Below, piece after piece: positions 972 through 42,244 of a stretch of DNA of 64,000 nt. Origin of the DNA: a virus. Its lineage: Duplodnaviria; Caudoviricetes. The translations under genes were made by a program, and so were the position numbers. Under the pieces are notes generated by a model. The model ran no database searches. It saw nothing but the letters and a program-made list of their open reading frames with translations, and was not told the origin of the DNA. Each line of letters starts with the position of its first letter. The stretch's first letter is position 1. The stretch is from IMG/VR virus record IMGVR_UViG_3300031992_000007, positions 96,001 through 160,000 of that record. One strand, given 5' to 3'.

Positions 972-1791
972 AGGTGAGCATCCAGAACTTGGATATTGGA
1001 TAGCATATCACGAAGGTGGTTCTGATAGAGAGGGAACGTGTGTTTCAGCGTGGACTCGCAGTGGATATTATTCAGTAGACAGACTAGCATGTAGGCTCTC
1101 CTATCTGGAGGTGAGGGTGAACGCTATTGGCATGCTGGGTGGTATGGAGCAATGGCTGTAGACAGAGAAGGAAAGAAATTGAATGTGACTATCTACTGGG
1201 TAGTTAATCTTGATATACACAATAGGCTCTCCTCAGAGGTGAGAACAGAGAAGGACAGTCGATATGTCTACGAGCAGTCGCTGATCAAGAGAATAATTCC
1301 TCACACGATGTCTTAACGTTCTACTCAAATAGAATCATGAACTCGATGTATCCTGGATCTGTGTATCGTAAAAGGCTCTCCCCCTCCAGAGGTGTAACTG
1401 ATCAGTCTTACGACACAAGATTTATTGTTGATAACAGAACTGTTGGTGGAACTGTTCCTGGTTCGACATATTCAAGTGGTTCTAGTTTGAATCGAGTTTA
1501 TGGAATGACTAACAGGCTCTCCTAAGGAGGTGAAAGAACAGGCTACGTATGTCAGTGTTACATTGGACTTGCAGGATATTGTGGGACTGATACAGGCAAC
1601 ACTACAATGAATCCAGCACGACCGTTATACGATGCAGAATTTCCCAGGCTCTCCTAAAAGGTGGACAGTCTAATGGCGCACCTCTCTTTGAATATGCGTG
1701 GAGACACTGGTTCATGATGAAGAATGGGTTTCACGGAACGAACTTCTCACCTAACTGGGATAATGATGTCTCCATAAACACAAGGCTCTCC
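972..1791 (+). repeat. Cassette array A: 6 in-frame variable peptide cassettes bounded by AGGTG and AGGCTCTCC
   Basis: AGGCTCTCC at 1093, 1224, 1373, 1514, 1646, 1783. Cassettes (GGT..TCC) are 973-1101, 1110-1232, 1238-1381, 1391-1522, 1529-1654, 1660-1791; all are multiples of 3 and stop-free. Confidence 0.9.
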
Positions 1792-1812
1792 AAAAAATAA
1801 AAGCAAGCAATG

Positions 1813-1840
1813 CCTTCCCTAGGCCGAAGCCTAGGGAAGG
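1813..1840 (-). terminator. Intrinsic terminator
   Basis: CCTTCCCTAGGC-CGAA-GCCTAGGGAAGG 12-bp stem; the A-run at 1792-1802 is the U-tract on the minus strand. Confidence 0.8.
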
Positions 1841-3859: not shown

Positions 3860-5944
3860 TTATGGTACAGGATAGACATCCGAAAATAGAAGTTTACTGT
3901 CTTCAAAACCACAAGCTACACCTATCTGCTTCAAGAGAAGATGACAAGGCTTGACGTTGTGATAGATAATGTCAGTGAACTTCACAAGAGGGATGATCTC
4001 GGGTGGCACCTTACCACCAACGGGATTGATGACGAATGTAGATGGCGGCTTGTTCTTCGCAAGGAATGCCATCATGCGCTGATAGATGTCTGGACTGGTC
4101 TTGGACAACCAGTTCAGATATTCCTTGTTCGGAACATGCACTTGAACTGCTGGAGCCTTGGTAGGAATCAGGATGTCTCCGTATTTCTGAGCAAAGATCT
4201 CCTGCCAGGCGTAGTAGTAATACCAGTTGGACTGAAGAGGTGTGGCGTAATCAGTCTTCTTGCGGATAGACAGACTCTTGAACCAGGTGGAACTACCTTC
4301 CTGCAAGTCCTGTCTAATCTTGTTCTCGAATGTACTGACTTTGTGCACCAACTCATGTCCTGAGATCTTACCATTGTTGTTCATGTTTATCAGAACGTCG
4401 TTCTCAGAAAAGTTCTTAGCGAAGGTAACTGCTTCCTTGCAGATATCAGATCCCTTGAACTGAACACCTTTAATGTCGATCTCTGGCTTGGGTAGCAGAA
4501 CACCTTCCTGAATAGCCACGATGCCAGCATAATGTTTCTTCACATCAGCCAGGATCATAACCGTATACAGGAACTCGTTCTTCATAGCCATCACTGTCTT
4601 GTATTCATCCCTTGCTCCATGAGCTTCACTGTAGATCAAGAGAGTGTGGGCGATAGCCTGGGTTATCCAGTAGATCATCACACAAGCGATGTGATAGGAT
4701 TCAGGAGCAGTGCTGTAGACATCTCCAGTATACCACTTAACCCAGTCCTTAACTGTAAAGATGACCGAGTCAGTATCGGAAATAACTGCAGAGTTCCTGA
4801 TCATGTTGGGTCGGGTTCTGACAGAAGTCCTATTAATAGGAGTAAAGAGGAACGTGTTGAACAGTTTGTCCATGTCCTTGAGCTTCTTGTCCACATACCT
4901 TGCGATATGCACGAACTTGACAGCCAGGTCAGGGAAGAGTTTAGGAAGGTCGTAGACCTGAACCTCAGGATCGTGTGGGTCAACATGCTCTCTGAACGCC
5001 ACGTTGCACAGAATAACTAGAGCTCCGTCTAGTTTGAACAGATCGTCTGGGACTACTTTGCTGTCGGAGAAGTCGACATTGTTGATGTCGAACAGTTCCT
5101 TGAACCAGCCTTTCATTGTCCCTTCGTTACCCATGAACATGTGACGAAGATTCTGGAAGTACCAGAAGTACTGAACCTCCGAATCATTCAGCTTGCTTAT
5201 CATGTCAGTGAGCATGGAGAAGTCATCATACCTGTGGTACATGGTAAGACACTTCTTGTAGAACTCGAAAAGATCGTTGTGAGTGGCTCTCTTCAACTTG
5301 TAGGTGGACATGACTTCTTCAACAGCAGCACAGTCTATACCTTTATTGAGGTGAGCTACGATGTGTTGAAGAAGTTCGTCCATAGAGAACCAGGCAAAAT
5401 TGCCTCCAAGAACAGCTTCGATCTCAGAGTTGGCATAGCCAATCAAAGATCTGCCACACGAAGTGATGGCGTTGTAGTTAGCCTTGCTGTAGAACAACGA
5501 ATACGGAGATCCGTAGTTACCAGGCAAGCTGTTCATGGTTATCTTGATTAACGTCTGAGCGTAGTAGTGCTTGAGTTCCTCGGTGGTATTACCGGCAGCC
5601 TTAGCTTTAAGCTGGAGTTTCTTCTCCCTCTTCCGGTTAGCCATCATCTCGATGATCATCTCGATCGTCTTGGACATCTTGACACTGTGCTGGCAGAACA
5701 CAGAACCCGAGTCAGACAGGATGTTATCCTTCTGAGCATCGAACCACGAAGCCAGGTCGACTGCCTTGATGACAGGGACTCCGTCTTCCTTGGTTTCCTC
5801 GATTATTGCTGTTAACGGGTGGTACGTTTCCTTGCACAGTTCCAGGCTGTATGTCCTGGCTTTATCTTCTGGTAGTCCGTACTTCCTCATCATGTACGTA
5901 GCTACTTGGTCTCGGTAACATTTGAGCAATGGTTGACGAGCCAT
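3860..5944 (-). CDS. Family-B-like DNA polymerase, polymerase-domain subunit (phiKZ gp50-like)
   Basis: Motifs KITMNSLPGNYGS (KxxxNSxYG-like), ITSCGR, ISDTDSVIF and KKHYA..KGVQF. Confidence 0.85.
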   Translation of the reverse strand: MARQPLLKCYRDQVATYMMRKYGLPEDKARTYSLELCKETYHPLTAIIEETKEDGVPVIKAVDLASWFDAQKDNILSDSGSVFCQHSVKMSKTIEMIIEMMANRKREKKLQLKAKAAGNTTEELKHYYAQTLIKITMNSLPGNYGSPYSLFYSKANYNAITSCGRSLIGYANSEIEAVLGGNFAWFSMDELLQHIVAHLNKGIDCAAVEEVMSTYKLKRATHNDLFEFYKKCLTMYHRYDDFSMLTDMISKLNDSEVQYFWYFQNLRHMFMGNEGTMKGWFKELFDINNVDFSDSKVVPDDLFKLDGALVILCNVAFREHVDPHDPEVQVYDLPKLFPDLAVKFVHIARYVDKKLKDMDKLFNTFLFTPINRTSVRTRPNMIRNSAVISDTDSVIFTVKDWVKWYTGDVYSTAPESYHIACVMIYWITQAIAHTLLIYSEAHGARDEYKTVMAMKNEFLYTVMILADVKKHYAGIVAIQEGVLLPKPEIDIKGVQFKGSDICKEAVTFAKNFSENDVLINMNNNGKISGHELVHKVSTFENKIRQDLQEGSSTWFKSLSIRKKTDYATPLQSNWYYYYAWQEIFAQKYGDILIPTKAPAVQVHVPNKEYLNWLSKTSPDIYQRMMAFLAKNKPPSTFVINPVGGKVPPEIIPLVKFTDIIYHNVKPCHLLLKQIGVACGFEDSKLLFSDVYPVP

Positions 5945-6013
5945 ATTCGTTTTCCTCCAATGTTCATTCAATGACCAAAAGTTGTAAACATTTAGAGGTC
6001 GATTTACATTAAG

Positions 6014-40016: not shown

Positions 40017-40719
40017 AGGTGAAGATGGGACATCTATCCATGTTTCTAGAGTCGTTCAAACGTGGGGAGTGAGTAATGTTGGAGATATAAACATTTCCAA
40101 CTCCGTACACACTTATCCTCACTTATCAGAAGCCAGGCTCTCCGGAGGTGATGTCACTATTTACAACCAATATGGGTTAGCACAACCAAGTAACCTTATC
40201 GTTATGGATTATTCCGTAAACAATGGATGTCTTCCTAATAATCACATGGGTTTTGGATTGATTTTTATAGGAAAACCAGGAAGGCTCTCCCAGATAGGTG
40301 AGACGACAACTCCAGAATGGTTGAAGAACAAGATGGGAATGTGTAGTGCCGAAAGTCAGGGTTCGACAAGAACGTACGATCAATCTCCTAACACAGTTGT
40401 AACCAGACAGGGTGGCTTTATTCCAAGGCTCTCCAGGTGGAAATACCGAAAATAAAGACGTACATAGTAGACAGGAAACATTGGTCATAATGTCTAATGG
40501 AAGTGCGCATTACCACGATTCAAGATTGTGGCCAGCAGCTAATGATCCAGAAAGAGTAAGGCTCTCCGCTCCGCCGGAGGTGTTTCGTACGCACAGACAC
40601 ATTATTTCTTTCCGCACTGCGTAGCTCCAATAATCGACGACGGTGTGATGTGGCAGAACGGGTGGCAGGGTGCAGATTTGATGCATTATAGCGGAATATT
40701 TAAGCAAATAAGGCTCTCC
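40017..40719 (+). repeat. Cassette array B: 5 in-frame variable peptide cassettes bounded by AGGTG and AGGCTCTCC
   Basis: AGGCTCTCC at 40135, 40282, 40426, 40559, 40711. Cassettes are 40018-40143, 40147-40290, 40297-40434, 40436-40567, 40579-40719; all are multiples of 3 and stop-free. Confidence 0.9.
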
Positions 40720-40797: not shown

Positions 40798-41181
40798 ATG
40801 AAAGCCAAGACAAAAACAACGAAGAAGACTGCAGCCTCCAAGGCGAAGAAGCCTGTGAAGAAGGTTGCTAAGAAATCCGCCAAGTCGGTCAAGCCGGACA
40901 AGAAGAAAGTCAGCAAGATCAACAAGAAGGACAACGAAATCGGTTCCAAGATCGTTGATCTTCTGAAGAACACTCTTGCTCCAACTTCGACACTCAAGGC
41001 CGCTCCGTCTGCTCCGGCAACTCAGAGCAAGTCGCCGGTTGCAACGATCGGAACGTGCACCCAGGCCCAGGTTAAGTCAGTGACTCGCTTCTCTGCAACT
41101 CCTGTTGCTAAGACAAGGTTCGTTGCAGCTGGCGTGTCGCCCAAGACTAACTTGCCTGTCACTCTTGTTGCCAGCAAGTAA
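40798..41181 (+). CDS. Lys/Ala-rich histone-H1-like basic protein
   Basis: MKAKTKTTKKTAASKAKKPVKKVAKKSAK N-terminus; AAGGAG RBS. Confidence 0.7.
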   Translation: MKAKTKTTKKTAASKAKKPVKKVAKKSAKSVKPDKKKVSKINKKDNEIGSKIVDLLKNTLAPTSTLKAAPSAPATQSKSPVATIGTCTQAQVKSVTRFSATPVAKTRFVAAGVSPKTNLPVTLVASK

Positions 41182-41211
41182 CAACCATCTTTTGACGCCA
41201 ACCCAATTAGA

Positions 41212-41995
41212 GGATGCACTCAGCGCTTTACTACAGAGGATGACCTTAGGTCTTTCTGTACATTCCTAAAGCCTAACGGAGGACTGTGTGGACGTGTGAG
41301 TAATAGACGTGAACCTTAACCTATCCCACGTTTGATTATCTTCGCACGGAGTCCTTCTAAAATTGAGTTGATGTAACGTCATCGATCCGACTAACTACCC
41401 TCAGTGCGTTGCCCGCGGCCTGCTGCTCCGCGGTAAATGAATGAACAGATATAGGTGAATGAAGGATCGGGATATCGAGGGAGTACAAGGTCGATAGACA
41501 AACATCAGAGCAGAAGTTAAAAGTGTGTGCCGATAGAACACCACGTCATTACCTTAGGGCGTTCTGAGAGGAGCCTAGAACTTATCAGAATGCCCGCCTA
41601 GCTAGCGTCAAAGGTATCACCCACATAACGTTCGTCATGACGTATCCGAATCTGGGAAGGTTCGGTTGGATGTGGGGTTAGGTTAAAAGGTAGATTCTAT
41701 CTGCGCGGAACGTGTCCTGGTGGATGTTCTAATTCCATCAGGTTCGCGCATACCCACAATAGACAGATGTTCTGTTATTGTGACAAATTAGCGGTTCGTC
41801 GGTTGTGTGAGTATAAGTGAATCCGAGTTTAAGTTATCAGAGTCAGTGATGACCCACAGGTGGCATCTGCAAAGGTGGCTCCGGTGGGCATTTGGTCGAA
41901 CTGACATCCAAGTCTGTAACTGCTTCGGTGCTACGCTCCCCTCAACCGGAAGTAATTCCGGAGAAACCGATACCTTCTTAACAGCGGAGAAAGGT
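41212..41995 (+). ncRNA. Candidate ~780-nt structured non-coding RNA
   Basis: ORF-poor tract with many stems and a long-range pairing of 41316-41333 with 41668-41686; G-U pairs favour the + strand. Confidence 0.6.
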
Positions 41996-42004
41996 TGACT
42001 GCAA

Positions 42005-42244
42005 ATGGCATTGCGACCAAAACATCAGGTTGAAGCATATGAGAAAGCGACAGTCCTTGATATGCCATGTGGTTTCTGTTGTACAATGATGCCTGTTCCT
42101 AGGGAACTCTATGAACAAGGTGGTATCTACAGATGTCCAAAGTGCAAGATGGCTGTTAAATTCAAGAAACACAAGATCAAGGTTGCCAAACGGACCAGGA
42201 AGTTCAATATTCGGAACCGAATTAACGTACCAGATTTCTCGTGA
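42005..42244 (+). CDS. Small basic zinc-ribbon protein
   Basis: CGFC...CPKC. Confidence 0.6.
   Translation: MALRPKHQVEAYEKATVLDMPCGFCCTMMPVPRELYEQGGIYRCPKCKMAVKFKKHKIKVAKRTRKFNIRNRINVPDFS

Follow-up and report, generated by a model that had tools for sequence, protein, structure and literature searches.

The 64,000-nt stretch analysed here, referred to as the window, covers positions 96001–160000 of a 265,480-bp virus record (IMGVR_UViG_3300031992_000007) which CheckV rates as complete. It carries two arrays of short head-to-tail cassettes, and the subject of this report is the junctions between these cassettes and their counterpart in a fibre gene elsewhere in the same genome. The arrays are marked by the motif AGGCTCTCC, which occurs in 11 exact copies in the window, all on the plus strand, 131–152 nt apart and grouped at positions 1093–1791 (array A) and 40135–40719 (array B), where about 0.5 copies would be expected by chance on both strands of 64 kb. 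The whole genome holds 35 forward and 2 reverse copies, as opposed to 1+1 for a control pattern. The initial annotation had described the junctions as CTCC-loop-GGAG mini-palindromes containing a Shine-Dalgarno-like GGAGGTG. The strings it quoted are present as given (CTCC-TATCT-GGAG at 1098–1110, CTCC-TAA-GGAG at 1519–1529, CTCC-GGAG at 40140–40147 and CTCC-GCC-GGAG at 40569–40579), as are three junctions which keep AGGTG only (1659, 40296 and 40435). All of these can be read as a 3' box which closes one cassette, a linker, and a 5' box which opens the next (Table 1).

Table 1. Cassettes, junctions and associated features (window positions unless marked as genome positions).
Feature	Position	Strand	Description
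Cassette A0	972..1101	+	First of array A, no 3' box upstream; 5' box AGGTG 972-976; open frame 973-1101; 3' box AGGCTCTCC 1093-1101
Junction 1	1093..1113	+	Site of the initial annotation; 3' box AGGCTCTCC, linker TATCTGGA (8 nt, frame shift +2), 5' box GGTG; reads CTCC-TATCT-GGAG
Cassette A1	1110..1232	+	41 codons, G...RLS
Junction 2	1224..1241	+	3' box, linker TCAGA (5 nt), 5' box AGGTG; without GGAG
Cassette A2	1238..1381	+	48 codons
Junction 3	1373..1394	+	3' box, linker CCCTCCAGA (9 nt, in frame), 5' box AGGTG
Cassette A3	1391..1522	+	44 codons
Junction 4	1514..1532	+	3' box, linker TAAGGA (6 nt, in frame, TAA stop), 5' box GGTG; holds the perfect Shine-Dalgarno string TAAGGAGGTGA of the initial annotation, from 1523
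Cassette A4	1529..1654	+	42 codons
Junction 5	1646..1663	+	3' box, linker TAAAA (5 nt), 5' box AGGTG
Cassette A5	1660..1791	+	44 codons, last of array A; 3' box 1783-1791
A-rich tract and 12-bp GC-rich hairpin (1813-1840)	1792..1840	-	Faces the 3' end of array A
Cassette B0	40017..40143	+	5' box AGGTG 40017-40021; 42 codons; 3' box 40135-40143
Junction B0/B1	40135..40150	+	3' box, linker GGA (3 nt, in frame), GGTG; reads CTCCGGAG
Cassette B1	40147..40290	+	48 codons
Junction B1/B2	40282..40300	+	3' box, linker CAGATA (6 nt), 5' box AGGTG
Cassette B2	40297..40434	+	46 codons
Junction B2/B3	40426..40439	+	3' box, linker A (1 nt, frame shift +1), GGTG; boxes almost fused
Cassette B3	40436..40567	+	44 codons
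Junction B3/B4	40559..40582	+	3' box, linker GCTCCGCCGGA (11 nt), GGTG
Cassette B4	40579..40719	+	47 codons, last of array B; 3' box 40711-40719
Fibre gene (expression site, locus L011)	genome 224574-228812	-	1412 aa, outside the window
Avd-like gene	1.8 kb downstream of fibre gene		333 aa; same position in five relatives

Genome-wide, 52 cassettes of 37–51 codons each are recognized, 11 of which fall in the window. All 52 are open frames from A-GGT-G to xGG-CTC-TCC, and each is open in the phase in which AGG CTC TCC reads Arg-Leu-Ser. Once one mismatch is allowed, the 3' box takes the form xGGCTCTCC, whose 8-nt part is invariant across the 52 cassettes and all relatives described below. Its first base is A in 35, T in 13 and G in 4 cassettes, so that the earlier observation of AG followed by G at both cassette borders holds in the window and does not extend to the genome. 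Conservation of the 5' box is graded (GGT in 52 cassettes, A(-1) in 51, G(+3) in 50, G(-2) in 32 and G(-3) in 19), as is expected if longer homology is simply better. The linkers, counted from TCC to GGT, measure 1–13 nt, and their lengths fall evenly into the three classes modulo 3 (14/13/15 over the 42 internal junctions; 22/22/19 with the junctions of two relatives included, chi-square p = 0.87). A stop interrupts 5 of the 14 in-frame linkers, which leaves only 9 of the 42 junctions that can be read through. Linker lengths are thus random with respect to frame and few junctions are readable, which indicates that an array is not one gene and that the selected unit is the single cassette. A single interrupted gene, read by bypass, frameshifting or mini-introns, was rejected on the same counts and on the presence of one 1-base linker.

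Apart from the boxes, the cassettes have little in common. A MAFFT alignment of 13 units aligned at the boxes only, an all-against-all BLASTP comparison detected similarity in only 2 of 1326 pairs (59–61% identity), and homology of the cassettes to the expressed region is confined to 8 nt at the 3' box and 4–19 nt at the 5' box. In five homologous cassette pairs, found within the genome and between relatives, dN/dS lies at 0.07–0.52 while linkers and neighbours differ, which suggests that cassettes are maintained as proteins and reshuffled at the junctions. The fibre gene and 50 of the 52 cassettes are on opposite strands, and the same orientation is seen in the loci of the four relatives examined (L013–L016). 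The remaining two cassettes (genome 10862 and 11004, minus strand) face a forward array head to head.

The fibre gene contains both boxes in frame. Its protein ends in ...AQYWWLRSAGG, a segment of 50 aa, and RLSPLITIG, where GCC GGA GGT G opens the last segment and AGG CTC TCC CCG closes it. This expressed tip is identical to a silent cassette at genome 243693–243857 over 160 of 160 nt, adenines included; the identity begins with CTCCGCCGGAGGTG and ends exactly after AGGCTCTCC, and the tip and its twin coexist in one genome. The boxes are the only sequence common to the mutually unrelated cassettes and the expression site. The palindrome CTCC-GCC-GGAG is likewise present there in frame, coding for Ser-Ala-Gly-Gly, and the junction at 40559–40582 carries the longest match in the genome to the 5' flank of the expression site (19 nt, GCTCCGCCGGAGGTG and beyond). 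The 5' flank TGG CTC CGC TCC (L011:7233–7260, reverse-complement coordinates) is the 3' box TGGCTCTCC extended by one codon, so that the tip lies between imperfect direct repeats in this genome; this resemblance is gone in a lineage which uses TTA AGG TCA. The fibre protein matched no family in Pfam or PHROGs, and an AlphaFold2 model of its last 300 residues was unusable (predicted local distance difference test, pLDDT, 36). According to hhalign, its C-terminal domain resembles a neighbouring DUF6273 protein (88% probability, E = 3e-6), the alignment ending before the tip. The matched protein is one of two DUF6273 proteins encoded downstream of the Avd-like gene in one relative (L014:16226–19486; L011:143–1450).

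Relatives were found through the protein database only. A viral contig collection searched with a neighbouring gene and the fibre protein yielded no relatives, and blastn of both arrays against a phage collection gave no match. Two matches to the box-box-box pattern in viral contigs (L009 and L010) were discarded as false positives caused by collagen-like GSPGVTG repeats. Seven fibre homologues are 41–64% identical over the C-terminal region; five read ...YWWLRSAGG, an unrelated stretch of 40–50 aa and (R/W)LSPLITIG, and the other two, P0006 and P0007, have an aberrant end behind WWLRS, P0006 being a tandem-cassette site which a stop closes. A DNA-level comparison of five expression sites shows invariant GGAGGT and GGCTCTCC and synonymous changes in the codons beside them (CTC CGC TCC here as opposed to TTA AGG TCA elsewhere; CTG/CTT and ATT/ATA in Pro-Leu-Ile-Thr-Ile-Gly). 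Since the boxes stay fixed while neighbouring codons drift, the constraint acts on nucleotides and on the boxes alone.

Closer comparisons place the exchange borders within the boxes. Among fibre proteins clustered at 90% identity or more, bodies are 98.5–100% identical and tips are unrelated, with 2 tips in one cluster and 8 in another. Between the sister strains L014, L017 and L019–L022, nucleotide identity is lost after GCCGGAGGT and returns at (A)GGCTCTCC; in L019, L020 and L021 it is lost after GCCGGAG instead, although the break in L021 consists of one base within the same tip as in L022 and is possibly a point mutation. By this comparison, the GGAG highlighted in the initial annotation is part of the putative 5' exchange homology. 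The genome of L017 contains, about 9 kb from its expressed tip, a lone silent cassette which matches that tip except at about 3 positions. Two convergent terminators enclose this cassette, a T-run directly precedes its 5' box CCGGAGGTG without CTCC upstream, and it was evidently used as a donor; the palindrome would thus not be needed for donor function. The same silent cassette is found in L014 and L019. Its persistence in strains which express other tips points to transfer from silent to expressed copy rather than archiving of an expressed tip.

Two further observations concern expression sites in relatives. The site of L016 (L016:15119–15660) holds three tandem cassettes with two ordinary junctions before WLSPLITIG. 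The first linker has 12 nt and is in frame (RLS-ILL-GG), the second has 27 nt with a TAA stop, PLITIG follows the third cassette only, and the called protein stops early; the site may represent a run-on copy or an intermediate of array formation. Furthermore, contigs L019, L020, L021 and L022 end 51–55 nt past the first base of the 3' box, which is about k-1 for k=55. As several tips converging on one flank would stop a de Bruijn assembler there, these contig ends suggest that several tips coexist in the respective samples, which is a hint and not proof. A search for long proteins bearing the B0–B2 tips of the window found none, which is weak evidence.

The surroundings of the arrays are consistent with a silent role. 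At the end of nine of ten arrays, an A-rich tract precedes a GC-rich hairpin, which corresponds to a terminator-type hairpin with a T-run on the opposite strand. The T-run is adjacent to the hairpin in the array at genome 243849 and follows about 9 nt after it on the minus strand in array A, whose hairpin (1813–1840) is terminator-like and absent from the list of a consensus terminator scan. Two arrays and the lone cassettes of relatives start right after a sense-strand terminator, and the other arrays abut a divergent gene start. A scan for sigma-70 promoters around both arrays of the window found none, a result which is uninformative if the phage uses its own RNA polymerases. The donors appear, by their sequence context, to be shielded from transcription. 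Between the terminator of array A and the end of a 557-aa minus-strand gene lie about 390 nt (1845–2235) with no convincing open reading frame and many complementary segments, and about 820 nt without an open reading frame (41182–42005) follow a lysine-rich 127-aa gene (40798–41181); neither stretch matched Rfam at the gathering threshold. Elsewhere in the window, a 703-aa protein (3860–5971, minus strand) matches Pfam PF20286, ‘Divergent Family B DNA polymerase’ (E = 5e-113).

A junction is probably the 3' box of one silent cassette (xGGCTCTCC), filler, and the 5' box of the next ((GCC)(GG)AGGT(G)), and the cassettes are copied into the fibre gene between these boxes. The boxes would be the DNA image of the constant segments clamping the fibre tip, W-W-L-R-S-A-G-G on one side and R-L-S-P-L-I-T-I-G on the other, and a cassette copied without loss between them would yield a new tip. 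Such copying would be templated, non-reciprocal and dependent on synthesis. Its priming or anchoring point may be the invariant 8-nt 3' box, with resolution on the 5' side through annealing at short homology of variable length (4–19 nt) and possible help from the Avd-fold protein, whose gene follows downstream. A copy running past a junction without exit would insert several cassettes together; the three-cassette site of L016 is the product expected of a templated copy which runs through junctions before its exit.

Several points weigh against this reading. The boxes (8 nt and 4–9 nt) are far shorter than recombination of the RecA/UvsX type normally needs, and no copying enzyme was recognized, the Avd-like protein having no known partner here and no RVT_1 domain appearing in six frames. 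A sequence-specific protein would account as well as microhomology for the near-universal A(-1) (51 of 52 donors) and for the invariant 3' box. The evidence for switching is entirely comparative, and the direction of transfer is inferred only from the persistence of silent cassettes. In addition, transcription of the arrays was judged by a scan for sigma-70-type promoters only, and array B, the sole exception among the ten, has no terminator at its 3' end.

The Avd-like proteins match PHROG 3206 (phrog_3206, ‘Avd protein of DGR’, where DGR denotes a diversity-generating retroelement) in 5 of 5 relatives, with a best E of 3e-9. AlphaFold2 predicts a four-helix bundle for the N-terminal 145 residues (pLDDT 84), and the top Foldseek matches of this model are 2gsc, 2rld, 4dwl and 8ube (a DGR ribonucleoprotein), with TM-scores of 0.72–0.88 normalised to the target. 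In structure prediction, the protein best resembles the 23S-IVP/Avd family; a search of PDB sequences with the protein or its profile gave nothing relevant, and NCBIfam likewise gave nothing. Six-frame searches of the complete 265-kb record found no candidate for PF00078 (RVT_1) at E <= 10 and no match to PF00589 (Phage_integrase), PF00239 (Resolvase) or PF01797 (Y1_Tnp), each with matches in control genomes. A tentative possibility is that the boxes are the cis-sites of an undescribed, dedicated copying machine, descended from or parallel to DGRs and built from the Avd-fold protein and a polymerase which cannot be recognized as a reverse transcriptase. Priming would occur at the 8-nt 3' box of the fibre gene, and one of about 50 stored, unrelated tips would be copied faithfully up to the exit at GGAGGT; if true, the phage would possess a programmable switch of host range drawing on a finite library.

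It is rather unlikely that the boxes are instead recognition or cleavage sites of a sequence-specific recombinase or nuclease of an unrecognised family, which would cut GGCTCTCC and GGAGGT and swap the segment between them. The near-constant A(-1), which is non-coding in the donors, would fit such an enzyme, as would the fixed 3' box, the synonymous conservation of the boxes in relatives whose fibre C-terminal regions are so divergent, and homology too short for general recombination. However, none of the families searched for in six frames gave a match, and the two boxes differ from each other, sharing only GGAG/CTCC, a 4-nt inverted repeat. The 5' breakpoints vary (GCCGGAG or GCCGGAGGT), as does the length of 5' homology, which is more like annealing than a fixed cut, and the spacing of the boxes at junctions is unconstrained. 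The initial annotation had considered recombinase half-sites. This idea survives insofar as a junction holds both exchange borders, the swaps running from GCCGGAG(GT) to AGGCTCTCC; the palindromic half-sites themselves do not, because the boxes belong to two different cassettes, the spacing is free (reaching 27 nt in a relative), one evidently used donor stands alone without CTCC upstream and no known site-specific recombinase is encoded. Neither a cognate recombinase nor inverted half-sites at fixed spacing, which mark invertase/shufflon and integron attC sites, were found.

A DGR-like pathway without mutagenesis is a still more doubtful alternative. Here, the arrays would be transcribed, and a polymerase with the Avd-like protein would copy cassette RNA into cDNA replacing the tip, the 3' box acting as the (GC)14/initiation of mutagenic homing (IMH) element and the 5' box as homology for template switching. 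Five relatives show synteny between the Avd-fold gene and the target gene, and the variable 110–150 nt lie at the extreme 3' end of the fibre gene. A fixed GC-rich 3' element common to donor and recipient, sequence unique to the recipient beyond it and variable 5' homology match the layout of Bordetella phage BPP-1 (PMC3240598). Against this stand the lack of a detected reverse transcriptase, the perfect identity of tip and donor and the placement of donors between terminators; the L017 donor starts about 5 nt after the T-run of a sense-strand terminator, leaving no room for a promoter. In addition, a hairpin of about 14 pairs after the 3' box (L011:4555–4595, minus strand), reaching from the final codons across the stop into the 3' untranslated region, does not appear to be conserved: z is -2.65 in this genome and -2.0 in L013, the values in L014–L016 (-0.3 to -1.0) are not significant, and there is no consensus structure.

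The junctions are very improbable as RNA signals, whether as micro-hairpins cutting array transcripts into pieces of about 130 nt or as Shine-Dalgarno, bypass or splicing signals for translation of the cassettes: although CTCC can pair with GGAG at some junctions, one junction exactly complements the 16S rRNA 3' end and all cassettes are open frames, the CTCC...GGAG arrangement is found in only 17 of 42 internal junctions, the linkers are random with respect to frame, and both motifs lie in frame within the 1412-aa gene, coding for Gly-Gly and Arg-Leu-Ser. The palindrome seen by the initial annotation is therefore real at the junctions it named and is not a general feature. Its gaps measure 0–8 nt (3–24 nt in L016), most commonly 3 nt, the value also found at the expression site, and four of them leave too little room for folding; the loop-less junction B0/B1 cannot form a hairpin at all. 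GGAGGT is about as frequent in first or lone cassettes, which have no CTCC upstream (about 4 of 12), as at internal junctions (17 of 42), and the GG of GGAGGT is independent of CTCC. Nine of 13 L016 junctions have A in front of GGAGGT, matching the expression flank of that genome, GCAGGAGGT. An in-frame ATG, GTG or TTG lies 4–10 nt after AGG in 5 of 52 cassettes as opposed to 7 expected, in agreement with the earlier remark that no in-frame start follows at normal spacing. At the gathering threshold, Rfam matched only a tRNA-Asn in the window and nothing in the arrays. Hairpin potential varies from junction to junction, and the suggestions of RNA processing and of unusual translation or splicing are not supported, also because 9 of 10 arrays abut an opposite-strand terminator and several directly follow a sense-strand one. 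The complementarity of CTCC and GGAG and the Shine-Dalgarno appearance are incidental, following from Leu-Ser codons (CTC TCC) beside Gly-Gly codons (GGA GGT).

If the preferred reading of silent cassettes copied between boxes is right, the junction motifs are the exact cis-elements of an apparent stored-library switch of host range, comprising an invariant 8-nt box, a graded box of 4–9 nt and a tip of 37–51 codons between them. The diversity of phage receptor binding is now attributed to mutation, DGRs, invertible segments and exchange between phages, and an internal finite library would be a further route. A literature search found no description of a phage or virus system which switches tips from stored cassettes. 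New here are the anatomy and statistics of the junctions, the breakpoints at nucleotide level, the working donor free of a palindrome, the tandem-cassette expression site and the terminators flanking the arrays. Replacement of a segment of 110–150 nt with 8 nt plus about 5 nt of homology poses an enzymological puzzle. The boxes make the system easier to detect in other genomes and to test, and in principle they point to a way of exchanging fibre tips in laboratory work on phages and their hosts.

Shine-Dalgarno sites resemble the junctions in that GGAGGTG(A) complements the 16S rRNA 3' end and the phage genes use AAGGAG-type sites; unlike them, the junctions have start codons at working distance no more often than by chance, and at the expression site the motif represents Gly-Gly codons inside a long gene. 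Processed repeat RNAs, such as those of clustered regularly interspaced short palindromic repeats (CRISPR), differ in that most junctions lack a stem and the arrays contain no known RNA family. The mtd/TR/avd/brt cassette of phage BPP-1 is a DGR (PMC3240598). As here, ‘copy and replace’ with a separate template as source diversifies the last 110–150 nt or so of a tail-fibre gene, the variable segment closes with a fixed GC-rich element which the template shares and beyond which the sequence is recipient-specific, the 5' end is resolved via homology, and an Avd-fold accessory gene lies beside the target. The phage record differs from a DGR in having 52 unrelated, ready-made templates instead of one template repeat, donors which appear shielded from transcription, no reverse transcriptase found, and no adenine mutagenesis, that is, no differences between template repeat and variable repeat at template adenines.

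By analogy, the closest known system is vlsE/vls. In Borrelia burgdorferi B31 the silent array is inverted relative to vlsE, as 50 of the 52 phage donors are relative to the fibre gene. The Borrelia system comprises one expression site and 15 silent cassettes, with the variable region lying between 17-bp direct repeats (PMC9159922, PMC11499132). Both systems have one expressed gene with many promoterless, in-frame, head-to-tail cassettes and short repeats at the cassette borders in expression site and arrays, and in both, transfer would be unidirectional with retention of the donor. Features of silent-cassette conversion of the vls/pilS/tprK kind found here are a single expression site with 52 start-less in-frame partial-gene cassettes, the retained donor (the 160/160 twin and the L017 silent copy shared with its sisters) and variation between close genomes which is confined to the cassette region, with breakpoints in the boxes. 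Extended cassette homology with segmental mosaic conversion is not found: vls cassettes share about 90% identity with the expressed region, and this homology drives a segmental conversion (PMC11499132), whereas the phage cassettes are mutually unrelated, the boxes are their sole homology and the whole tip is exchanged. The phage donors are furthermore scattered over about 10 arrays across the virus genome, and their target would be the tip of a fibre as opposed to a bacterial surface antigen.

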